Source of the DNA: Alphaproteobacteria bacterium
GTDB lineage: Bacteria > Pseudomonadota > Alphaproteobacteria > JAQWUY01
NCBI GenBank assembly: GCA_965276005.1
Contig: OZ254962.1
Location: 1,887,809 to 1,951,808, forward strand
Direction of reading: 5' to 3'
Length of the DNA: 64,000 nt
The position numbers and the translations under genes were made by a program. The notes beneath the pieces were generated by a model. The model had not been told where the DNA came from and did not search any database. It saw nothing but the letters and a program-made list of their open reading frames with translations. Below, piece by piece: positions 5,347 through 46,482 of the stretch (position 1 is the first letter of the stretch; every line of letters begins with the position of its first letter).

Positions 5347-6381
5347 CTAGTCGATGGCACCAATCTTTTTCAAGTAAGCTTTGTGGTTTGCAACCAATGC
5401 TTTTGCTTCTGGAGTTGTGGCAAATTCAGGCCAAGTGGCAACCGCCGCCTCCCGGAATTTACGGACATCTTCGGCAGACCATGTGGATACAGTGATACCT
5501 TGTTTACGCAACGCATCCGCCGCTTCTGCGTTCTTTTGTCTAAATGTTGTTACCACATTCAAGGACAACGCCTTTGCAGCGGTTTTTAAAATTGCCTGCT
5601 GTTGATTGGTCAAGGAGTCCCAAACCTCTGTATTACACGCCAAGTGTTCGGTCGGCATAGAGTGGAACCCCGGATAGTTTGTATACTTGGCAATGTCGTA
5701 CATACCGCCATTTTTGTTTACCGCTAATTGAGAATAATCGGCACCATCGATCATTTTGGTTTCCATAGCAGTATACACTTCGGCGAAGTCCATTACAATC
5801 GGCTTGGCACCTAATTTTTCAAAAATCTTAGGCTCCATACCGGGGGGGGAACGGAATTTCCATCCTTTTAAGTCTTCGATACCTGCAATCGGACGGGTAG
5901 AACTTAGGGATTCATGGTCAGGTACAAACACGCCCACCAAAGTCATACCATAACTGTCATACAATGCTTGTGCGGCTTTGTTGCCACCACCGGTATAAAA
6001 CCATTCCAGCTGTTGATATGGGGACGCATATCCGCCCATAATATCCGAAACAAATTGGAACGCTGGATTTTTACCCGTTTGGTATCCGACACCTGTCATG
6101 TCGCAGTCGAGTACCCCATTCATCGCTGCATCAAATGTTTCTGTGGACTTTACCACAGCAGCGGAATAAAACATTTCTAATGTTAAATCGCCATTCGACA
6201 TGGCCGCCACATTTTTCGCAAATGCTTTATATAAAATGCCAAAATCTGATGTTTCTGCGAAGTGGGTTTGCACCCGTAAAGTTGTCCCCGCAAGGGCAGT
6301 CGTTGCCAACAGACCCATAGCCCCTGCAGCGATTATAGTTTTTCTTAAAAATTTCATAGTATTTGCTCTCTTGTCGTTCAT
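5347..6381 (-). CDS. dctP: TRAP transporter solute-binding protein (DctP family)
   Basis: 344 aa with a signal peptide (MKFLRKTIIAAGAMGLLATTALA) and TRAP SBP-like sequence. First gene of the dctPQM operon. Confidence 0.85.
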   Translation of the reverse strand: MNDKRANTMKFLRKTIIAAGAMGLLATTALAGTTLRVQTHFAETSDFGILYKAFAKNVAAMSNGDLTLEMFYSAAVVKSTETFDAAMNGVLDCDMTGVGYQTGKNPAFQFVSDIMGGYASPYQQLEWFYTGGGNKAAQALYDSYGMTLVGVFVPDHESLSSTRPIAGIEDLKGWKFRSPPGMEPKIFEKLGAKPIVMDFAEVYTAMETKMIDGADYSQLAVNKNGGMYDIAKYTNYPGFHSMPTEHLACNTEVWDSLTNQQQAILKTAAKALSLNVVTTFRQKNAEAADALRKQGITVSTWSAEDVRKFREAAVATWPEFATTPEAKALVANHKAYLKKIGAID

Positions 6382-8093: not shown

Positions 8094-8122
8094 CAAGAAC
8101 AACTCGGTTGTCAGTCTTCGCA

Positions 8123-9112
8123 TTAGAAGCTGATTTTTGTACCGATGTAAGTTGTTTTCTTTTCGCCATCTTTTTTGTCTTCGACGGTCACTTTCAGACC
8201 TTCGGCAACAGTGTAGTTTGCAGTGATTGTGGTTTTCTTTGTTTTATCCGCATTGGGTTTGGTTTCTGTACCATATTTCACATCCCAGTTAGATGCGGCA
8301 TACTTCAATGACATACCTGTACCTGAGTTGCTACCTACTTTTCTTGAAGCATACTCAAAGGTTATACCGCTCATGCCACCGCTAAGTTTCCAGCCACTTT
8401 CTTTCACTTTTTCGCCACCAGTAGTAACATCCTCGGAACCATAGCCGAATCCGATGTCAGCACCAGAGAACGCTCCCTCATACTTGATACCAAAGCCACG
8501 GGGATCTTTTTCTCCTCCACCATAAGTGTAGCCGCCAGAGAAGCCAGAGAACGAAGGACTGGTGTAAGTTATGGCACTATTCATACTTTCGGTACCCACA
8601 TCACCTCCAACTGCTTTGTTGGCAAAGGAATCATGATGCCCCAAGTCTACACGCCCCCAAGACCCAGAAACGAACGCAGAAGCCTCAGACTTCGTTGGCT
8701 CGTAATCGCCAATGGTAGCAGCTACATCACCGGTGAGTGCACTATCTGTGCCAACATAATTATCTTTGACTGTGCCTACCTTAGACCCATTATCGCTTAG
8801 AACATCTCTGTCTTCTTCCTCGTTATCAATACTAAGTCCACGGGTATCCTCAAAGTTAAGATGCGTATTCTCAGAAGTTGCATTGCCAACCTTTACTTTG
8901 TAAGTACCGCCAAAAGTCAAACCGCTAGAGGTGGTCTTAGAGTCAGAAAAAACGACTTCACCAGAGGTGCCAAAGCGCTTGCCTTTCTCCACCCCATTCT
9001 TTTCACTTTGGTCTGCAGTGTAGTACCTAGTTGTTACGGAACCGGATACAGTTGCCGCAAACGCAGAGCCGGCAAATGCCAACGCTGTTGCTACTAATAG
9101 AATTTTTTTCAT
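8123..9112 (-). CDS. Outer-membrane porin (alphaproteobacterial general porin-like beta-barrel)
   Basis: Signal peptide MKKILLVATALAFAGSAFA. Gly/Ser/Thr-rich with alternating beta-strand pattern. C-terminal Phe (…GTKISF). Confidence 0.6.
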   Translation of the reverse strand: MKKILLVATALAFAGSAFAATVSGSVTTRYYTADQSEKNGVEKGKRFGTSGEVVFSDSKTTSSGLTFGGTYKVKVGNATSENTHLNFEDTRGLSIDNEEEDRDVLSDNGSKVGTVKDNYVGTDSALTGDVAATIGDYEPTKSEASAFVSGSWGRVDLGHHDSFANKAVGGDVGTESMNSAITYTSPSFSGFSGGYTYGGGEKDPRGFGIKYEGAFSGADIGFGYGSEDVTTGGEKVKESGWKLSGGMSGITFEYASRKVGSNSGTGMSLKYAASNWDVKYGTETKPNADKTKKTTITANYTVAEGLKVTVEDKKDGEKKTTYIGTKISF

Positions 9113-9447
9113 TCTTGTTTCCTTCTTAAAAATCGAAAAAATTAATTAAAATCTCAAGGGCATCCACAAACAAAAGAATCCGTCAACACCCCCATACCAA
9201 GACCCCAAAACCAGCATTCAGCCGCTATTCGGTCAAGGCACCCGTGCCGCCTGACACAGAACAGGGACACCATACACCCGCTAATGTGTATGTGCAAATG
9301 TTAAGACGCCTTGACATGCAAAAAACATGTTGGGTGTGATTTTTTTGCAACACCCGCATAGTATTTTTATTATACAAACACAAAATAACATGTTATAGTA
9401 AGGCTACATTTAACTTACAACAACTGTTTTAAAAGACTCTGAAGCTT

Positions 9448-11490
9448 ATGTCTGACCCACTCGTAGCACAGGAAAATACAAACAAAATACGCATCATATG
9501 CAGCGGTTATATGCTGTGTAACCTGTTTGTAATGTCATTCCTATTTTTTTGGTTTTATGTCATATATCGAAGTGAAAGTTTTAACTCTATAACTGTCATG
9601 TGGCTATATACAGCGTTTGTGGCATCGTCAACGATTGTTACGGCTTTTTTGTTACGCCATCAACAGACACCGCAAAATGTGGCTACTGTTAGCCTGTTAT
9701 TTGCAAGTATTGCCATTATAACCGTTATTTTTAGTCCATTTCGGGATATTCCCTTCGTTGCAGGTATATTTGGTAATATACGGATTCCCCTATATAGCGT
9801 ATCATTATTTGCCATTGTGTGCCTATCGTTAAAAATTATTGTGCTGTGCAGAAAGCACGCCCCCATAATAACACTGTGGTCGATGTTTGGATTTATTGTT
9901 ACCTCTTTCACAGTAATGTTTATTGCCGCCAACGATATGTTTAATCAGGACTTCAACGCAGTTACGGGCATTATCAGTCTGGTGATGATTTGTGCATTTG
10001 TCGACAGGAACATGTGGCAAAATGCCCATATATCTCATAAGATTTTAATTGTTGCAAGCATCTGCATTACACTATTTTTCACCCTTAGCAACGACAACCG
10101 CACCGCCCGGGCGGTGATATTGGTGGTTCCTGTCATGACCTTATGTACAATATATGTATTGCATAAGATTTTTCAACGAAAAATTGCTCTGCGACTTATC
10201 AGCTTACTGCCCATATCTGCACTTATGGTACTCACCTTATCGATACTTGTTGCCGCCCGACTTATTGACACACAAGCATTTGAAGGATCCATGTTCAGAA
10301 CCGTTTGGTTACGAGCCACATTATGGCAATCTATTTTACAAGGTATGTCATGGCAAGATTGGATTTTTGGATATGGATGGGGGTTGTCATATTTGCCATC
10401 GATAAATGCAACATGGGTTGAAGGCACAGGGAAATATTTGGGCAATGTGTATACGGGACAGTATGTGTCAAACTATTTGGGTGGCGGATTCGATCACGCC
10501 CATAATGAATTGATACAATTTTTGGGGGCGGGTATACTGTCAATGTCTATATATATCCTTATACTGTTTAGGCTCTCTTGGGATAACCGCCAGCGACCGA
10601 TTGTCATTGCCATGTTGACAACATATACAACCTTGTTGGCTACATGGTTTCATGTGACTGAGGACACCATTTTTTTAATGTTGGCTTTCGGGTTTTTGGC
10701 GGCAAGTAACACAAAAGTCACATACACATATACGCCCCCCATACTGATAAAAACCAAAGCGATAGCATACAAATATTTTTCCGTATTCTGTGGCGGGATT
10801 TTAATTGTATATGCGGTATTCGCCACCACCATTCATATTCCCTATGTATGGGCTGTACAAAAAAATAAAATTACCCGTGAAATGTACGATAATAAATGGT
10901 ATACTGGATTTCAAGTGAGCGGATACCGATTGGAATCTGTGTGGTGGCGTAATAGATTTAACAGAGCAGTATACAAATTGCAAAATAGTAAAAAGAGTTT
11001 CAATAAAGAATTTACAACCTATTTGGTCGATATGCTGGATACGATGAAAATTGTTGCCAAACAAGAAGGAAGCATCGCCCTATACGAATTGGCAGATACT
11101 TATAATTATCTGTTTAATATACGCAGTGAAAATCTGGTGTTAGAGAAAATCCGTGAGCGGGAATATGGCAATTGGGCGACTATTATGTTAATGGTTAATG
11201 ACGAACTAGACGGGCGACCCGATTTGTTTGTAAAATACATGAGGTGGCATTATCACAACCACTTTGACACGGCAATTTACGAAGTCACAAAACGCATCTT
11301 GGCAAAAAATCCCAATAATGCGGTGGCGTTATATTGGCGCTCGGCAATTTTTAGAAGACAAGGTAAAATGGTAGAAGCGGATGCGTACCTTAAAAAAGCA
11401 TTTAAAAATAACATCACCCGCTATCAAAAAACCACGCCCGATGAATATGAACAATACAAACATTTGATCGACCCTATATATCAACGATAA
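9448..11490 (+). CDS. O-antigen ligase (Wzy_C/WaaL) family polytopic membrane protein with C-terminal TPR-like soluble domain
   Basis: About 12 TM helices. O-antigen ligase signature loop 'GGGFDHAHNELIQFLGAGIL'. C-terminal 'AVALYWRSAIFRRQGKMVEADAYLKKAF' is TPR-like. Confidence 0.6.
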   Translation: MSDPLVAQENTNKIRIICSGYMLCNLFVMSFLFFWFYVIYRSESFNSITVMWLYTAFVASSTIVTAFLLRHQQTPQNVATVSLLFASIAIITVIFSPFRDIPFVAGIFGNIRIPLYSVSLFAIVCLSLKIIVLCRKHAPIITLWSMFGFIVTSFTVMFIAANDMFNQDFNAVTGIISLVMICAFVDRNMWQNAHISHKILIVASICITLFFTLSNDNRTARAVILVVPVMTLCTIYVLHKIFQRKIALRLISLLPISALMVLTLSILVAARLIDTQAFEGSMFRTVWLRATLWQSILQGMSWQDWIFGYGWGLSYLPSINATWVEGTGKYLGNVYTGQYVSNYLGGGFDHAHNELIQFLGAGILSMSIYILILFRLSWDNRQRPIVIAMLTTYTTLLATWFHVTEDTIFLMLAFGFLAASNTKVTYTYTPPILIKTKAIAYKYFSVFCGGILIVYAVFATTIHIPYVWAVQKNKITREMYDNKWYTGFQVSGYRLESVWWRNRFNRAVYKLQNSKKSFNKEFTTYLVDMLDTMKIVAKQEGSIALYELADTYNYLFNIRSENLVLEKIREREYGNWATIMLMVNDELDGRPDLFVKYMRWHYHNHFDTAIYEVTKRILAKNPNNAVALYWRSAIFRRQGKMVEADAYLKKAFKNNITRYQKTTPDEYEQYKHLIDPIYQR

Positions 11491-36941: not shown

Positions 36942-38111
36942 ATGTTAAAGCGATATATTACAGATTTTGTACATAAAAGTGTATCCCAAATGCCGGCGGT
37001 GGCGTTGTTGGGGGCTCGGCAAGTGGGGAAGACTACGCTTGCTAAGACCTTTATGGCGGATGGGAATGCCATTTATATGGACTTGGAAAATCCTCGGGAC
37101 TTGTTACGGCTCGACGACCCTTTGGCGTTTTTTGCGGAACATGCGGACAAGTTGATTATTCTGGACGAAATCCAACGCATGCCCAATATGTTTACGACCC
37201 TGCGAGGGATGATTGATACCAACCGTGCTAACGGTCGTAGGGTTGGACAGTTCTTATTATTAGGCTCTGCATCTATGGATTTAATGCGTCAATCGTCCGA
37301 AAGTCTTGCCGGTCGTGTGCGGTATGTACATATGGGCGGATTAAATGTACTGGAAATCGGGAAAAGCCGTCAAGATATGAATCGCCTGCTACTGCGGGGG
37401 GGATTTCCCGAAAGTTACTTAGCGGTCGATGACAGTTCGGCTATGGATTGGGTGCATGATTTAATAAGTACTTATCTGGAACGGGACATTCCGCAAATGG
37501 GCTTTAATGTACCTGCAGACAGGTTGCGGAGATTGTGGGCTATGCTTGCCCATTTGCAAGGGGAAACGGTTAATGTCAGCACCTTAGCCACCAATTTGGA
37601 AGTACAACGGGCAACTGTCAATCACTATTTGGATATTTTAACTGATTTATTATTAGTTCGTAAATTACAACCGTATCACGCCAATGTAAAAAAACGCCTA
37701 GTAAAATCCCCCCGATACTATATTCGGGACACGGGCATACAAAATTGTTTGTTGGGCATAGAAAATCACGATGCGTTATTATCCAACCCCATACTAGGCA
37801 AATCATGGGAAGCGTTCATCATAGAAAACATCCACTCTGTCCTGCCGAAACGGGCAGAAACATACTTTTACCGCACGCAAGCAGGGGCAGAAATAGATCT
37901 CATCATAAAATTCCCCACAGGCGACATCTGGGCAATCGAAATAAAATACGGACAATCCCCAAAAATCAGCAAACATTTTCATACGACCTGTCAAGACATA
38001 GGGGCAACCCAAAAATACATCATATACGGCGGGAACGATACATTCCCCATCAGAAATGGCGTTGTTATGACAGGGGTAAAGGCGTTTATGGAAAGACTTG
38101 GGGAATACTAA
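36942..38111 (+). CDS. AAA ATPase (AAA_14-like) with C-terminal DUF4143 / PD-(D/E)xK-like domain
   Basis: Walker A 'GARQVGKTT', Walker B 'LIILDEIQ'. C-terminal 'GAEIDLIIKFPTGDIWAIEIKYG' is a PD-(D/E)xK nuclease-like motif. Typical DUF4143-family ATPase. Confidence 0.8.
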   Translation: MLKRYITDFVHKSVSQMPAVALLGARQVGKTTLAKTFMADGNAIYMDLENPRDLLRLDDPLAFFAEHADKLIILDEIQRMPNMFTTLRGMIDTNRANGRRVGQFLLLGSASMDLMRQSSESLAGRVRYVHMGGLNVLEIGKSRQDMNRLLLRGGFPESYLAVDDSSAMDWVHDLISTYLERDIPQMGFNVPADRLRRLWAMLAHLQGETVNVSTLATNLEVQRATVNHYLDILTDLLLVRKLQPYHANVKKRLVKSPRYYIRDTGIQNCLLGIENHDALLSNPILGKSWEAFIIENIHSVLPKRAETYFYRTQAGAEIDLIIKFPTGDIWAIEIKYGQSPKISKHFHTTCQDIGATQKYIIYGGNDTFPIRNGVVMTGVKAFMERLGEY

Positions 38112-38150
38112 CACCTTGCTTTAACCGTCTGTTTACCATACTTTTTTAAA

Positions 38151-38865
38151 GGGCTGTACCAGATAACTAGCCTAAATATTTTTTAGTCCACTGTTTTTTT
38201 TGTGATTTAAAACCACTGTGATTAAATCGCCACTCACATTCTTTCAAGTATAGCACGAAATTCTGCTTAGAAATACTATTATATGTACGCATATGGCGTT
38301 TAGCTTGGTTCCAAAAATTTTCAATGCCATTTATGTGATTATCACCATCTGCAAACTCTGTGCTATGGTTAATCCGCATATGGTGAAAATCTGTAACATC
38401 CAAAGCATTATATCCTTTCCAACCATCACTATATACGATACTATCAGGAACAACTTTGCTTTCAATAATTGGTATTAAAGTATCACCACTTGCATCAGGT
38501 ATCATTTGCGTATAAACCTTTTCGCCCCTTTTAAGTAAGCCAAATACAGGTGTTTTCGCCTTCGCACCCCGCCCCCTTTTTCCTTTACGGCTACCACCGA
38601 AATAACTCTCGTCAACTTCTATTTTACCACCAAAATAATTACTGCCTTGCTGTTCCATTTCATAGAAAATTATCTCTCTTAAACGATGAAAATAATATGC
38701 TGAGGTCTTATGATTAACACCTATCAATTCATTGGCACAACGAGCTGTCGTTCCTGCAACAAAGTGTTCAATTAATTGCTCTTGCTTATACCAACTTATC
38801 CGACTTTTTTTAAATAATCTATCCATAATAACAACCTATCATAAGTTAGTTATCTGGTACAGCCC
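38151..38865. mobile_element. IS1595-family insertion sequence (compact, ~715 bp) with 19-bp perfect terminal inverted repeats
   Basis: Left IR GGGCTGTACCAGATAACTA (38151-38169). Right IR is its reverse complement TAGTTATCTGGTACAGCCC (38847-38865). Encloses the single transposase ORF. Confidence 0.75.
38167..38826 (-). CDS. IS1595-family transposase (N-terminal zinc-ribbon-like region plus DDE domain)
   Basis: 219 aa. '…YSDGWKGYNALD…HMRINHSTEF…GIENFWNQAKRHM…' is the DDE_Tnp_IS1595 pattern. Confidence 0.8.
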   Translation of the reverse strand: MDRLFKKSRISWYKQEQLIEHFVAGTTARCANELIGVNHKTSAYYFHRLREIIFYEMEQQGSNYFGGKIEVDESYFGGSRKGKRGRGAKAKTPVFGLLKRGEKVYTQMIPDASGDTLIPIIESKVVPDSIVYSDGWKGYNALDVTDFHHMRINHSTEFADGDNHINGIENFWNQAKRHMRTYNSISKQNFVLYLKECEWRFNHSGFKSQKKQWTKKYLG

Positions 38866-38952
38866 CAAATTTTAATTTCATGCTTTGCTCTTCTGTATGG
38901 AGCACCGAATCTTTATCTAGTGCTAATCGTCTTGTGTCAAACTATGCTGACA

Positions 38953-39129
38953 CTAATTGCTTTGAGTTAAGTCTAATTCACCATCAGCAACGGCTAATAA
39001 CAAATTAAATACATAAACAGTTGGTTTTCTGCCTGATCCTTTTTCTAACACAGATATTAAATTTTCATCTACTAGTTTCCTCAGAATACTATTTGCGGTT
39101 TCCCTGCTCTTAATATCTGCAACTTCCAT
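38953..39129 (-). pseudogene. Remnant encoding a Fic-family-like C-terminal winged-helix segment
   Basis: 'SRETANSILRKLVDENLISVLEKGSGRKPTVYVF' matches the C-terminal wHTH pattern of Fic/DOC proteins. No Fic core upstream. The 5' part of track ORF 38953..39384 overlaps the cysJ remnant and looks spurious. Confidence 0.3.
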
Positions 39130-39238
39130 GAAGTTACTTGAATTGATAATTGGAAATCTAAAAAACGCATCCAATGCCCCGATAACAGATGGAGAGTGGG
39201 TTGTTTCAGTAAACTTTTGTTTCATCATTTCATGCGTT

Positions 39239-39616
39239 CTTAGAACCAATGCGTGTGGGGACAATTGGCTGTTTTTTGGCGATCGCACCGAAGCCAACGA
39301 TTTTTTATACAGTGAAACCTTAACCACATGGGAAAAACAAGGCAAACTGCGGCTGTCCTTGGCATGGTCCCGTGACCCTAACACCCCAAAAACCTATGTA
39401 CAAGACCTGATGTTACAACAGGGCGAAGACATTTTTAAACAACTTGAGAAGGGGGCATACTTTTACATTTGCGGTGATGCATCGAAAATGGCAAAAGATG
39501 TGGACGCCGCCTTATTAGAAATCGTATCGACACACGGAGCTATGGCAATAGAAAAAGCCACCGCATACATTAACGACCTAAAAAAGAATAAACGCTATGT
39601 GCGCGATGTGTATTAA
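39239..39616 (+). pseudogene. cysJ: 3' remnant of sulfite reductase (NADPH) flavoprotein gene cysJ (FAD/NADPH-binding C-terminus only)
   Basis: 'WLFFGDRTEANDFLY…YFYICGDASKMAKDVDAALLEIV…RYVRDVY*' reproduces the CysJ / cytochrome-P450-reductase C-terminal end (...RYQRDVY). The N-terminal ~430 aa are absent. Confidence 0.7.
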
Positions 39617-39637
39617 AGTGACCATAGTATCGCTGCA

Positions 39638-39659
39638 ACAAAAAAGTAATCAGACGACC
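39638..39659. repeat. Left copy of ~22-bp imperfect direct repeat flanking the MTase/DUF262-HNH cassette
   Basis: ACAAAAAAGTAATCAGACGACC versus the right copy ACAAAAACAGCAATCAGACGACC (42132-42154). The 12-mer AATCAGACGACC is shared perfectly. Confidence 0.7.
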
Positions 39660-39753
39660 TTTAGGAATTTTTATACATAACTCCGAAAGCCCATCCCCAT
39701 AAATTGCTACTATATGAACGGAATTTCACCTATATTCCATAAAATATCGACTG

Positions 39754-40839
39754 TTATCTGCTAGATTTTCTACGATTGCAATCTTTGCATAACATTTGAC
39801 AGTTTTGTTCCACCGTTTTACCGCCCTGCGACCATGGGGTGATGTGATCGCCTTCCATTTGTTTAATGTCAAAGTGTTCGTTGCAGATTATACATATACC
39901 GTTTTGTTTTTGGTATACTCTTTGTTTTATTTGGGGAATAAAAGCCCTTATATTTAAATGTCGTTCGTCATGAGTTAGGATATAAGGATAGATACCCTTT
40001 TGATTTTGTACATCTTCGTCTTCAATAAGTTTTGATATTTCTTTTTCTAATTCTGTCGTATCATAAGTCTTATCTTTAAATTCATTATACAGATCCCCCC
40101 AATTTACACCTTTCATTATTTTAACTCGTTTTTCTATAAAAGTGCCTTTTACCCAAGTAATGACATTTTGAAAGTATTGCCATAAAGCAAGTGCATTAAG
40201 ATCATGCTGATGATTCGACATATATGGTTCAATATTTTTTTCTGAAATCCATTTTATTACTGTTTCTAAATAGTCTTGTCTAATAGCAGAGCCGTTCAAA
40301 TAATCATGTCCAATTTGATAGGCAGGACACCCATTTTTACTGAAATACCTTTTAGCATCGGTGACCCAAGAACCCGAATAAACAGCATTTCTTAATTCTT
40401 GTTCTGTTAATTTTTCGCCTGCTATGTTAATAGTTTGAAACCATTTTAATTTTTCACTATCTTTGCCGCTACAAATATAAACCATTAATTTATAATCTAA
40501 AATTTGCTGTTGTTCGTCCGATTGCAAATTATGAAAACTTCTTAAATTATAAGAAAAATCACCATTGATATATTGGCATAAGGATAGGGTTCTTTGTTGC
40601 CCATCTATAACTTCAAAAGTTCCATTCTCTTTAAGAGCCCAATACATGACATTTAATGGAAAATTGTTTGTTACAGTATTTATAACTGCGTCCCGTTGTG
40701 CGTCTTTATAGATAAACTCCCGTTGATAGGGAGGGCGAATATCTAACTTTCCACCATACCCTAAAATGCCATTCTCTTGGTTGTCTTCATATCCATCTGT
40801 TAGTTCACGAACGGTTATTTCTTTAAGTTCTATTTTCAT
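39754..40839 (-). CDS. DUF262 (ParB-like NTPase/nuclease, DGQQR motif) plus C-terminal HNH endonuclease domain protein
   Basis: 'IRPPYQREFIY', 'FEVIDGQQRTLSL' (DUF262 hallmarks). C-terminal 'CIICNEHFDIKQMEGDHITPWSQGGKTVEQNCQMLCKDCNRRK' is an HNH motif. Start overlaps the methyltransferase stop (ATGA). Confidence 0.75.
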   Translation of the reverse strand: MKIELKEITVRELTDGYEDNQENGILGYGGKLDIRPPYQREFIYKDAQRDAVINTVTNNFPLNVMYWALKENGTFEVIDGQQRTLSLCQYINGDFSYNLRSFHNLQSDEQQQILDYKLMVYICSGKDSEKLKWFQTINIAGEKLTEQELRNAVYSGSWVTDAKRYFSKNGCPAYQIGHDYLNGSAIRQDYLETVIKWISEKNIEPYMSNHQHDLNALALWQYFQNVITWVKGTFIEKRVKIMKGVNWGDLYNEFKDKTYDTTELEKEISKLIEDEDVQNQKGIYPYILTHDERHLNIRAFIPQIKQRVYQKQNGICIICNEHFDIKQMEGDHITPWSQGGKTVEQNCQMLCKDCNRRKSSR

Positions 40840-41930
40840 AATTTTTTATTCCTTATAATTATGCGTGCGTATATACTAGAATACAATGCACCAGTTTCAC
40901 AGTCCTTAAATGCAGGTAGTTTTTTATCTTTTGTGGGATTATAAAGTCTATATAAAGTCCCTTTTGCATTCATTGTATATATACCTGTTGATTTCCCGGT
41001 TTTTTTGTCTAAAATCTCCATTTTTCTGTTAGTATCAAATTCAATAGAGCCAACAATCCCCAATGCTATAATTTCAAATTGTTCGGGATTATATTTATCC
41101 ATAAAAGTAATAGGGACACCCATCTCACCAGAATAATCCATTGGAATATCTTTGGTTTTGTCGACATTGATTGCATTAAAATTTTCATATTTCGGGTACG
41201 ATTCAGGTTCATACATTTTATAAAGAATTAAATCTTCGTAACGAGACTTATATTCCAAGTTTGTAAACCAACGAACACCTTTAACTCGGATAAATTTATT
41301 ATTATTTTCATCTACTCTAAACCCTGACGCTTTTAATGGATAGTCCTTGGGAACTCCAAATTCTCTGTCGCCACTTTTTATACTTGCCCCTAACCATATT
41401 TTATTATCACGAATCAACGAAAAAATTTCCTTATAAGTGAGTGCATTTAAATTTCCGATAATTAAAAACTGTTTATCATATTCGATTAGTTGTGCAACAT
41501 ACTCTCGAAACAGTGAAAATGGGGGGTTGGTAACAATAATATCTGCTTGTTTTAAAATATCGATACATTCATTACTACGAAAATCACCATCGCCATCAAG
41601 ATAATGAACGCCTATCTCTTCTATATCGGGAACATTGTTGCCATTTTTATCACCATTGTATTCAAGATAAATGGCTTTTTCGCTATCATTTTGACTAAAA
41701 AAATCCCTATTTTGATTTTTGTAACAAATGGTTATGAGTTTTTTTAAGCCAAGATGTTCAAAGTTATAAGAAAAATAGTGAAAAAAATTACTTACTCGTG
41801 GGTCATCACAATTACAAAGAACAGTTTTACCTTTAAAATGTTCCTTGTAATGTTTCAATTCTTTTTCAATATCCGAAAGCTGCGTATAGAACTCGTCCTT
41901 TTTTTGCTTTTTTGCTTGCTGTAAACCCAC
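40836..41930 (-). CDS. DNA methyltransferase, N6-adenine/N4-cytosine class (NPPF motif IV), EcoRI-methylase-family-like N-terminus
   Basis: 'DIIVTNPPF' catalytic motif. N-terminal 'KKQKKDEFYTQLSDIEKELKHY' resembles the EcoRI-type adenine methyltransferase family. Annotated start is GTG; an upstream ATG with a GAGGA SD lies beyond the poly-G tract (see findings). Confidence 0.7.
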   Translation of the reverse strand: MGLQQAKKQKKDEFYTQLSDIEKELKHYKEHFKGKTVLCNCDDPRVSNFFHYFSYNFEHLGLKKLITICYKNQNRDFFSQNDSEKAIYLEYNGDKNGNNVPDIEEIGVHYLDGDGDFRSNECIDILKQADIIVTNPPFSLFREYVAQLIEYDKQFLIIGNLNALTYKEIFSLIRDNKIWLGASIKSGDREFGVPKDYPLKASGFRVDENNNKFIRVKGVRWFTNLEYKSRYEDLILYKMYEPESYPKYENFNAINVDKTKDIPMDYSGEMGVPITFMDKYNPEQFEIIALGIVGSIEFDTNRKMEILDKKTGKSTGIYTMNAKGTLYRLYNPTKDKKLPAFKDCETGALYSSIYARIIIRNKKL

Positions 41931-41940
41931 ATTTCTAGTG

Positions 41941-41955
41941 GGGGGGGGGGGGGGG
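41941..41955. repeat. G15-16 homopolymeric tract (poly-C on the MTase coding strand), 10-25 nt upstream of the MTase GTG start
   Basis: catttctagtGGGGGGGGGGGGGGG(G)taaat. The longest homopolymer in the window. Confidence 0.85.
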
Positions 41956-42131
41956 TAAATATTTGTTTTTGTTGACTATTTTGTGTCATTACGCTATCAA
42001 TTCCTCATATGTTAATTTATTATCAAAGCCCCATCAAGTAGGCTGTTCGTATGGTCAAGTGTTAGTTCACAATTTCTTGTTTGGTAGCAACACTGGTATT
42101 TTGGATCATAATATCCCTGCAAATCGTAAAC

Positions 42132-42154
42132 ACAAAAACAGCAATCAGACGACC
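42132..42154. repeat. Right copy of the direct repeat flanking the MTase/DUF262-HNH cassette
   Basis: ACAAAAACAGCAATCAGACGACC. Confidence 0.7.
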
Positions 42155-42181
42155 GCTTTAATCTAAAATTAAAAGTACATA

Positions 42182-42775
42182 TCATGTAACAACATACTCG
42201 GATATGGCAATAATCACAGACACTAGCCCAGCGGTCAAGAATATTGTGCGATAACTTGAAATATGGATGTCTCGTTTGGTATCTTTGCGTAGCTGTTCTA
42301 TATCCTTACGCAAATCAACAATTTCCCTACGCAGATCGGCAATTTCTCTGTGAATATTTGCAATTTCCTCACGCACATCTGCAATTTCTTTTTCGGTTTC
42401 CACCCTTAATTTTGCAATTTCCTCATGGACATTTGTAATTTCTCTATGAATATTTGCAATTTCTTGCTTAGTCTCCACTCGTAAGCTTTCAATCTCTTTA
42501 TGGATATTTGCAATTTCTTTATGCACATCCGCAACCTCCCGTTTGCTATCGATACGCATTTGTTCTATATCCTTGTGGATAATAGCTATTTCTTTTTGAA
42601 TTTCTGCTACATCTTGTTTGGTAGCAACATTGGTGTTGGCAACCACCGCATAAGCAAGTGCCTTAGCATTTTGTTCTGACATGCCCATTCGTATCAGTTC
42701 TTGGGCGGTGCTGTATGTATCTGCAGTAGCAATTTGTAGTTCCATAGATCTTCTCCTTAGATGCGATTTTACCAC
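42182..42775 (-). CDS. Coiled-coil protein with tandem 11-aa (hendecad) repeats and C-terminal TM anchor
   Basis: Repeats KEIANIHKEIE / REITNVHEEIA / EEIANIHREIA. C-terminal hydrophobic 'IFLTAGLVSVIIAI'. The DNA carries the matching 33-bp tandem repeats (about 42290-42600). Confidence 0.5.
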   Translation of the reverse strand: MVKSHLRRRSMELQIATADTYSTAQELIRMGMSEQNAKALAYAVVANTNVATKQDVAEIQKEIAIIHKDIEQMRIDSKREVADVHKEIANIHKEIESLRVETKQEIANIHREITNVHEEIAKLRVETEKEIADVREEIANIHREIADLRREIVDLRKDIEQLRKDTKRDIHISSYRTIFLTAGLVSVIIAISEYVVT

Positions 42776-45177: not shown

Positions 45178-45315
45178 GTGGTTTTTTTTATGGTGAAAGT
45201 TAAACACACTGTAAACAATATTTGACCAAAAATGCTTTTTTAGATAAAAAAATGACAAAATTTCGTTAAAACATGCTACTATTTAAAAAATGTATTGTTA
45301 AAAAAGAGTAATATT

Positions 45316-46482
45316 ATGTTAAAAAAGGTAAGTGTTTCTAACTATCATAGCATAGGACAACAAGCAGTTGAAATGTGTTTTGATTCTGAACTACCCATTT
45401 ATATTGTGATGGGGGGGAATGCATCGGGCAAGACAACTTTATTAAAAGCTATTTCCTTTATCTTTTGGTTTATGAATTCTGATGAACAACATGAGAAAGA
45501 CGAAATGGTGTTTTTCCCTCATGTACTGCATAAAACATCACCCTCTGTATTTGCAATAGAATATACAGATGGCAAAGCCAAATATCAATATCAACTTGAA
45601 TTCAAAAATGGTACTTTAGTCAGAGAAGAATTTTCAAAACATGTGACTAGGGGATATTCAAGAGTGTATTCTGTGTTTCGTACAAAAAACAATGTAGAAT
45701 ATAAACTTTCAAACGCATTAAAATCAGTCCTTAATGAAAATGATAAAGTGCGTTATGGCAAGTTGAAAAATTGTTCGTTTTACAGATTTTTGCAAAATAC
45801 GGGGTATTTTGATTTATTGAATATCGATGTCAATTTTGTAAAAAATATTGTGAGTAATTCTAGTAATATTGGGCGTCAAATCCAACAAGATGGAGTAAAC
45901 ATGTTTTTTAGCTTAGCCAATATATTACAAGAAAATAAAAAATTGCAGGACTTTTTAATTAACCATTTGCAAATGTTCGATTTCAATATATCAAAATTTG
46001 TTTTTGATGACAAGCAAGCACTAAGAAATGATAAAGGAGAACTAGAAACTGTAACGACTACAAGCTTGGTTCATAAAACTGAAAGTTCTAAGGCAACACT
46101 ACCATTGCTCTTTGAATCAGAGGGAACTTATGCAGTGATACCGTTTTTGATCAATTTGTATGAGTTGATAAAAAATGGCGGCGTTATGATATGGGATGAG
46201 CTAGAAAACAGTACACATCCATTGGTCGCCAAAAAATTTATATCTGTATTAAAACAATATGTACAACATCATAACATACAAATAATTTTTGCCAGCCATA
46301 TGAATGCGTTACTGAATGAATTTGAGAAGAAAAGTATATTTTTTGTGGAAAAAACCGATCTGTTGGAAACAGATGTTTATACATTAAATGATGTCGAAGG
46401 TGTGCGTAAAGATGAAAATTTTGCTGATAAGTACATTGGGGGGGTATATGGTGGCACTCCAGATATTATGGGAGTTGCCTAA
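45316..46482 (+). CDS. ABC-type AAA_21/AAA_15-like ATPase (AbiLi-like component of an abortive-infection/OLD-like pair)
   Basis: Walker A 'GGNASGKTTLLKAI', Walker B 'IWDELENSTHP', H-loop 'FASHMN'. Likely start is the second Met (MLKKVSVSNYHSIG), the typical N-terminus of these ATPases. Low GC (~30%). Confidence 0.7.
   Translation: MLKKVSVSNYHSIGQQAVEMCFDSELPIYIVMGGNASGKTTLLKAISFIFWFMNSDEQHEKDEMVFFPHVLHKTSPSVFAIEYTDGKAKYQYQLEFKNGTLVREEFSKHVTRGYSRVYSVFRTKNNVEYKLSNALKSVLNENDKVRYGKLKNCSFYRFLQNTGYFDLLNIDVNFVKNIVSNSSNIGRQIQQDGVNMFFSLANILQENKKLQDFLINHLQMFDFNISKFVFDDKQALRNDKGELETVTTTSLVHKTESSKATLPLLFESEGTYAVIPFLINLYELIKNGGVMIWDELENSTHPLVAKKFISVLKQYVQHHNIQIIFASHMNALLNEFEKKSIFFVEKTDLLETDVYTLNDVEGVRKDENFADKYIGGVYGGTPDIMGVA

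Follow-up and report, generated by a model that had tools for sequence, protein, structure and literature searches.

The 64-kb stretch of alphaproteobacterial DNA that was analysed here as a whole (the window) carries a cassette of two restriction-modification (R-M) genes, which is bounded by a pair of short direct repeats, designated F' and F, and is located between a 3' remnant of cysJ and a gene for a coiled-coil protein. The cysJ remnant (39266..39616, plus strand) encodes the last 116 residues of the sulfite reductase flavoprotein, matching positions 424-539 of 539 in NCBIfam PRK06214, positions 482-597 of 597 in TIGR01931 and the Pfam family NAD_binding_1, and is convergent with the cassette genes. 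On the other side of the cassette, a hendecad/heptad-repeat coiled-coil gene (42182..42745, minus strand; hereafter the hendecad gene) encodes 7- and 11-residue repeats followed by a C-terminal hydrophobic tail and gave a weak DUF1640/CCDC90-like match. A search with the hendecad protein returned only six weak homologs and no ortholog with its genomic context, the best homolog being a 106-residue paralog elsewhere in the source genome. The next genes on the right are mntR and then miaA.

By its profile matches, the cassette is a recognised Type II R-M pair whose enzymatic activity is predicted from sequence. The methyltransferase gene (40836..41989, minus strand, with the body of its open reading frame (ORF) at 40836-41930) encodes an EcoRI-family N6-adenine methyltransferase that matched PF13651 over its full length (E=5e-142) and the PADLOC model MTase_II PDLC03297 (E=6.5e-122). 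The restriction endonuclease gene (39754..40839, minus strand, 361 aa) combines a GmrSD_N/DUF262 domain (PF03235) with a C-terminal HNH domain (PF01844), and its product matched PADLOC REase_II PDLC03418 from end to end (E=1e-129). The two genes are co-oriented with a 4-nt overlap. The pair resembles M.EcoRI-family Type II systems in the full-length PF13651 match and in the PADLOC Type II models fitted by both proteins. It differs from them in the partner nuclease, which consists of DUF262 and HNH domains, whereas R.EcoRI is a PD-(D/E)XK enzyme, and in the reading frame of the methyltransferase, which is broken by a G16 tract. This 16-G run, at 41940-41955, puts the ATG (41989) out of frame with the body, and the frame would be restored by 17 or 14 G; the allele of L001, the closest relative described below, has no G tract (TPTKS replaces TPPPPP) and is in frame. 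The methyltransferase could be phase-variable through strand slippage at the tract, or the length of the tract could be a homopolymer error of the assembly.

The first-pass annotation had described a compositionally foreign segment bracketed by the repeats and containing no integrase, and our analysis agreed on each of these points. The GC content of the cassette is 0.29-0.35 compared to ~0.44-0.50 in the neighbourhood, and the ~2.4 kb between the F copies contains the two R-M genes, a 26-nt gene relic and nothing else. No integrase or recombinase was found in or beside the cassette among the ORFs at 36-46 kb, where the sole mobility gene encodes the DDE transposase of an IS1595-family insertion sequence (IS) with inverted repeats of its own.

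The repeats themselves had been reported as a 22-mer, ACAAAAAAGTAATCAGACGACC, at 39638-39659 and a 23-mer, ACAAAAACAGCAATCAGACGACC, at 42132-42154, and both positions were confirmed. Their shared 12-mer, AATCAGACGACC, occurs only twice in the window with both strands counted, compared to zero occurrences expected, and still at two sites only when one mismatch is permitted. Because the cassette had been defined partly by the repeats, the match was re-tested using boundaries set by genes alone. One gap (39617-39753) separates the stop codons of cysJ and the nuclease gene, and the other (41990-42181) extends between the methyltransferase ATG and the stop codon of the hendecad gene. Aligned locally, these two gaps gave a best score of 35, a value also attained in 1 of 5000 dinucleotide shuffles and in 1 of 4930 randomly drawn pairs of real window segments. 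At this frequency of ~2 in 10,000, the match between F' and F is not a product of chance.

The repeat is longer than originally described. F' spans 39620-39664, starting 4 nt after the cysJ stop and holding the 22-mer, and F spans 42103-42161, holding the 23-mer and ending ~20 nt before the hendecad-gene stop, so that the two copies form an imperfect direct repeat. A left block (39620-39637, GACCATAGTATCGCTGCA, versus 42104-42121, GATCATAATATCCCTGCA) is identical at 15 of 18 positions and was significant alone with the core masked, 2 of 5000 shuffles reaching its score in a more permissive alignment. Between the left block and the core, the right copy carries a 10-nt insertion, AATCGTAAAC, and on the gene-proximal side, to the right of the core, no significant similarity between F' and F was detected beyond (C)TTTA. 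In total, F' comprises 45 nt and F comprises 59 nt including the 10-nt indel, with ~88% identity over the aligned bases. What had been seen as 22-bp repeats is the best-kept core of this longer, imperfect repeat.

F was written as the pattern ACAAAAA[N]AGYAATCAGACGACC plus the left block. No further copy of the core was found in the window or in the other fetched loci (L004-L084), a scan of a metagenome collection with the core pattern gave no match, and the window contained no over-represented 10-14-mers resembling the core. A dispersed repeat would be present in many copies per genome, compared to two copies of F per 64 kb, and the earlier concern that F might belong to a high-copy family of the repetitive extragenic palindromic type was not substantiated in the available DNA. 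The reverse complement of the core, GGTCGTCTGATT, resembles what we take to be a dialect of the Neisseriaceae DNA uptake sequence. Uptake sequences are typically present at about one copy per kb. Identity with an uptake sequence was rejected on the basis of the two copies per 64 kb, the lack of an over-represented k-mer and the MiaA homologs, which place the host in the Alphaproteobacteria.

A second, shorter duplication is interleaved with the first. The 26-nt gene relic in the cassette, D4' (42075..42100, minus strand), copies codons ~37-45 of the hendecad gene and lies 2-3 nt from F. Its resident counterpart, the 26-mer D4 (42612..42637, minus strand), is located inside the intact hendecad gene at a distance of 537 bp from D4' and is identical to it at 24 of 26 positions. 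D4' falls within a 16-codon fragment (42062-42109) that had been described earlier as a duplicate of the N-terminus of the hendecad gene; the fragment is real, but its homology is limited to the 26 nt and to codons ~37-45, rather than to the very N-terminus. The order on the plus strand is cysJ, F', the nuclease and methyltransferase genes with the methyltransferase leader, D4', F, the C-terminal body of the hendecad gene, D4, the N-terminus of the hendecad gene, and mntR. Read in this order, the locus is made up of two tandem units that each run from F to D4; in the first, the R-M genes stand in place of the hendecad body, and the second is intact. The joint between D4' and F, CTGGTATT|TTGGATCAT, is readable as D4 (TTGGTGTT) switching to the cysJ end (GTGTATTAAAGTGACCAT), with the switch located within a 5-nt microhomology, GTATT, common with the cysJ end. 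The microhomology suggests that the joint arose as a recombination join.

The genomes nearest to the source, which belongs to poorly sampled Alphaproteobacteria, showed MiaA identities of 99%, 70%, 64% and 61%; a first MiaA scan of genome contigs gave no match, and an MntR scan of the metagenome collection recovered only relatives at no more than 57% identity. The 99% relative, L001, is represented by a 23.9-kb metagenome contig that shares 99.4% identity with the window over the tRNA/AAA_14 flank and over mntR-miaA. Between these flanks, a different IS1595-family element adjoins a 5' fragment of the methyltransferase gene in L001, and the segment corresponding to window 38147-41710, including F', is missing. 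Further to the right, the methyltransferase leader is fused to the hendecad N-terminal region at a single copy of D4, with the loss of window 42096-42611, including F and the hendecad gene body, and with truncation of the hendecad gene to 62 codons. This fusion at the 26-mer vindicated the earlier suggestion that the cassette had recombined with, or had adjoined, a copy of the hendecad gene. The simplest derivation of the L001 junction, at which the two strains differ by 537 bp, is a deletion of this length in an ancestor resembling the window, in which D4' and D4 would have recombined; alternatively, the reverse event, a gain of the segment, may have taken place.

The two strains share 92% identity in the 5' part of the methyltransferase gene, 89% in the leader and 94% in the hendecad N-terminus. 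The divergence of the block from the methyltransferase to the hendecad gene (6-11%) exceeds that of the flanks (0.6%), suggesting that the block was exchanged between lineages.

The same gene pair was found in many other hosts. Methyltransferase relatives at 55-78% identity were present in 213 species-representative genomes from many phyla, including Vampirovibrio, Gracilibacteria, Parcubacteria, Bacteroidales, Spirochaetota, Chloroflexota and an archaeon, and a nuclease homolog was located directly downstream of the methyltransferase on the same strand in most of the 80 loci examined. The pair thus has the adjacent, co-oriented arrangement, recurring across genomes, that characterises Type II R-M systems. 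It was also annotated together in 45 plasmid records, of which 26 are predicted to be mobilizable, and the horizontal acquisition proposed initially was supported. Homology of the plasmid DNA to the window ended inside coding sequences, always within ~39763-41925, and in the nearest chromosomal copy (L004, 72.7% identity) the homology corresponded to window 39784-41907. F was absent from the ~80 other loci with the R-M pair (L004-L084). When 300 nt on each side of the genes were tested against shuffles at 46 loci with an adjacent pair, 44 showed no flanking direct repeat beyond the shuffles, and flanking repeats as a general trait of the module were rejected on these grounds. The remaining two loci, L018 and L056, had strong flanking repeats of their own, both unrelated in sequence to F. 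The repeat at L056 is ~250 nt long and has a third copy nearby, indicating a multi-copy element. As judged from these comparisons, the R-M module is highly mobile as a bare two-gene unit that lacks characteristic ends and is flanked by repeats only occasionally, in a form specific to the host.

At L018, which comes from an uncultured bacterium, the R-M pair lies between the two copies of a direct repeat of 136-220 nt (5691-5910 and 8107-8327), the last ~136 nt being 88% identical between the copies. On the upstream side, 64 nt separate the repeat from the methyltransferase start; on the downstream side, the second copy starts 8 nt past the nuclease stop. The repeat may represent a long target duplication associated with this R-M module.

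For the locus in the window, we lean, with modest confidence, towards a recombination-driven duplication of the local target around the R-M pair, in which two versions of the locus became joined in tandem. F' and F are best explained as an imperfect duplication, 45-58 bp in length, of a short intergenic region that was once located between the convergent cysJ and hendecad genes. According to this scheme, the R-M genes would first have taken the place of the body in one copy of the hendecad gene. Either the segment from F to D4 would already have been tandemly duplicated beforehand, or the R-M-bearing and the intact alleles would have been joined later by one homologous crossover and one microhomology join. 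In the L001 lineage, recombination between D4' and D4 would then have deleted the 537 bp. No site-specific recombinase would have been involved in any of these steps, and the F copies, as direct repeats, could in principle allow the cassette to be lost or amplified.

Direct repeats around R-M genes were assigned to three classes by Furuta, Abe and Kobayashi (Nucleic Acids Res 2010, PMC2853133), namely site-specific recombination, insertion with long target duplication, and chance insertion between repeats. For insertion with long target duplication, that survey (PMC2853133) required R and M genes inside the insert, an insert of <20 kb and a repeat of >30 bp, and it found direct repeats of the target, from 46 bp to several hundred bp long, on both sides of R-M inserts that contained no mobility genes. 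Such insertions had been described for Helicobacter pylori, and the two cases in Haemophilus influenzae carry 46-bp, genome-unique repeats that enclose an insert of lower GC content and extend into the 3' end of an adjacent gene (PMC2853133). The locus in the window closely resembles the Haemophilus influenzae cases. R and M homologs, and no other mobile-element genes, lie inside a small low-GC insert of ~2.4 kb, and the repeat exceeds 30 bp (45 nt on the left, 59 nt on the right), is located at the 3' end of a flanking gene and was not seen elsewhere in the available sequence. A duplication of the target, which the first-pass annotation had mentioned as an alternative, fits this evidence. The locus also resembles the products of allelic substitution and homology-facilitated illegitimate recombination in transformable bacteria, in that the contents differ at the same position in related strains, the block is more diverged than its flanks and one joint shows a 5-nt microhomology, with the difference that no donor allele was seen here and that the mechanism is deduced from the anatomy only.

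Several points weigh against a target duplication. No genome with an empty site, that is, with a single F between cysJ and the hendecad gene and without the cassette, was found, and L001, the sole close strain, lacks both repeat positions; because no such genome was found, we infer the order of events, and the same applies to the polarity of the insertion and the target duplication itself. The F copies, with their ~88% identity and 10-nt indel, are more diverged than published long target duplications, which are typically 95-100% identical. The structure is not a plain target-insert-target arrangement, since D4' sits between the insert and F, and this interleaving points to two alleles in tandem. 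cysJ is itself a remnant beside an IS element, indicating that the left flank has been rearranged. In addition, the 44 loci devoid of flanking repeats indicated that such repeats are not general for the module, and, for the source genome, the copy count of F refers to the 64-kb window.

An extension of the same idea would place the interleaved duplications (F'...D4' | F...D4) midway through the R-M life cycle proposed by the Kobayashi group, with entry accompanied by direct duplication and followed by repeat-mediated excision or amplification. In its boldest form, the DUF262/HNH nuclease would have made the break behind the microhomology joint. We regard this extension as improbable; if it were true, L001 would represent natural evidence that these short repeats recombine.

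Three other origins of the repeats were weighed against the target duplication. Site-specific insertion at an attachment (att)-like sequence, as proposed in the first-pass annotation, would make the repeats attL and attR with a 12-nt crossover core and would involve a recombinase acting in trans or since lost. As in integrase-mediated islands, direct repeats with an identical core, here 12 nt within less similar arms, exactly bracket low-GC foreign DNA, and the stretch belongs to a variable region starting with a tRNA-Thr gene, which lies at a distance of 3 kb on the left. However, attL/attR sites imply a recombinase in or next to the element, and the only mobility gene in the vicinity encodes the IS1595 transposase, whose element has its own inverted repeats. 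The same core would also be expected to bound the element in other hosts, but it does not travel with the cassette and is absent from the ~80 genomic loci and the 45 plasmid records with the same gene pair. F is unrelated to the tRNA, and an island integrated at tRNA-Thr was rejected because no second copy of the 3' end of this tRNA was detected in 36.3-43.0 kb. Finally, a relic of a neighbouring chromosomal gene, D4', lies inside the supposed end of the element. The D4'|F sequence has the look of a joint left by recombination of two versions of the locus, and not that of the end of an element. The att reading is disfavoured and we consider it a poor prospect.

A somewhat better, though still doubtful, alternative is that F was a functional repeat before the cassette arrived, either as a 3'-flank or terminator element of minus-strand genes (hendecad and nuclease) or as a sequence common to hendecad paralogs, with the cassette merely inserted by chance between repeated sequences. 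Both copies lie downstream of minus-strand genes and end with a T-run on that strand, and on the minus strand F contains, 28 nt beyond the hendecad stop, a match to the hairpin-plus-T-run pattern with 7 pairs, of which 3 are G-C. The hairpin is, however, weak (-7.8 kcal/mol, z=0.07 versus shuffles), it is not formed by F', and the significant extra similarity between the copies extends beyond the T-run and does not lie in the stem. The presence of a hendecad paralog elsewhere in the source genome and the multi-copy nature of the L056 repeat are compatible with a pre-existing repeat, against which stand the two copies per 64 kb and the lack of any copy in the other fetched loci, including >60 kb from relatives. 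F had no Rfam match, and a known RNA motif was rejected since Rfam identified the tRNA alone in 36-44 kb. Chance resemblance of two AT-rich intergenic stretches could be suspected, given that exact 12-mers shared somewhere in 64 kb are individually common and that the cassette had at the outset been delimited partly by the repeats. The re-test with gene-only boundaries (1 of 5000 shuffles and 1 of 4930 real window pairs) and the independent significance of the adjacent left block (2 of 5000) leave this resemblance scarcely credible.

The locus is a further example of a known R-M-linked rearrangement and of a known type of insertion scar; it adds a case and reveals no new phenomenon. It is a clean example, from a barely sampled alphaproteobacterial lineage, of a bare R-M pair fixed in the chromosome without a mobility gene of its own, and the pair of strains illustrates how short duplications appear to be reused for deletion. 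It also advises caution in that short flanking repeats should not be taken as att sites when a relic of a neighbouring gene is present at the joint.

To the left of the cysJ remnant, the window contains a gene fragment, the IS1595-family element, an AAA_14/DUF4143 gene and the tRNA-Thr gene. The fragment (38953-39265, minus strand) adjoins the truncated 5' edge of the cysJ remnant, has no Pfam or NCBIfam match and shows, by eye only, a likeness to a winged-helix C-terminal region. The IS1595-family element (38151..38865, minus strand; PF12762) forms the left edge of the rearranged stretch and carries 24-nt terminal inverted repeats with no obvious target-site duplication. Base 38147 is the point at which the window and L001 part, and each has a different IS1595-family element there (window 38147-38865; L001 1497-2403), the two being in opposite orientation and ~80% similar over short stretches only. 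The left side of the locus suggests IS-mediated deletions. The AAA_14/DUF4143 ATPase gene (36942-38111), located just after tRNA-Thr, matched the PADLOC candidate defence family PDC-S01 (E=1.7e-90).

On the right, relatives at 61-70% MiaA identity keep mntR-miaA and differ upstream, with a porin gene in L002, ubiB in L096 and AAA_21 plus RloB genes in L097. The surroundings of mntR-miaA look like a defence-gene hotspot. In the window, the R-M pair lies upstream and a gene for an AbiLi-like AAA_21 ATPase (45295-46482) lies downstream; among the relatives, L001 has SocA_Panacea and DUF2971 genes downstream, and L097 has its AAA_21 and RloB genes upstream. In L002 (70% MiaA identity; compared over 8205-9473), the porin gene directly adjoins mntR, and its homolog in the window is found at ~8104-9141. 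The ~33.8 kb that separate this porin homolog from mntR in the window (9141-42919) correspond to a large insertion or rearrangement.

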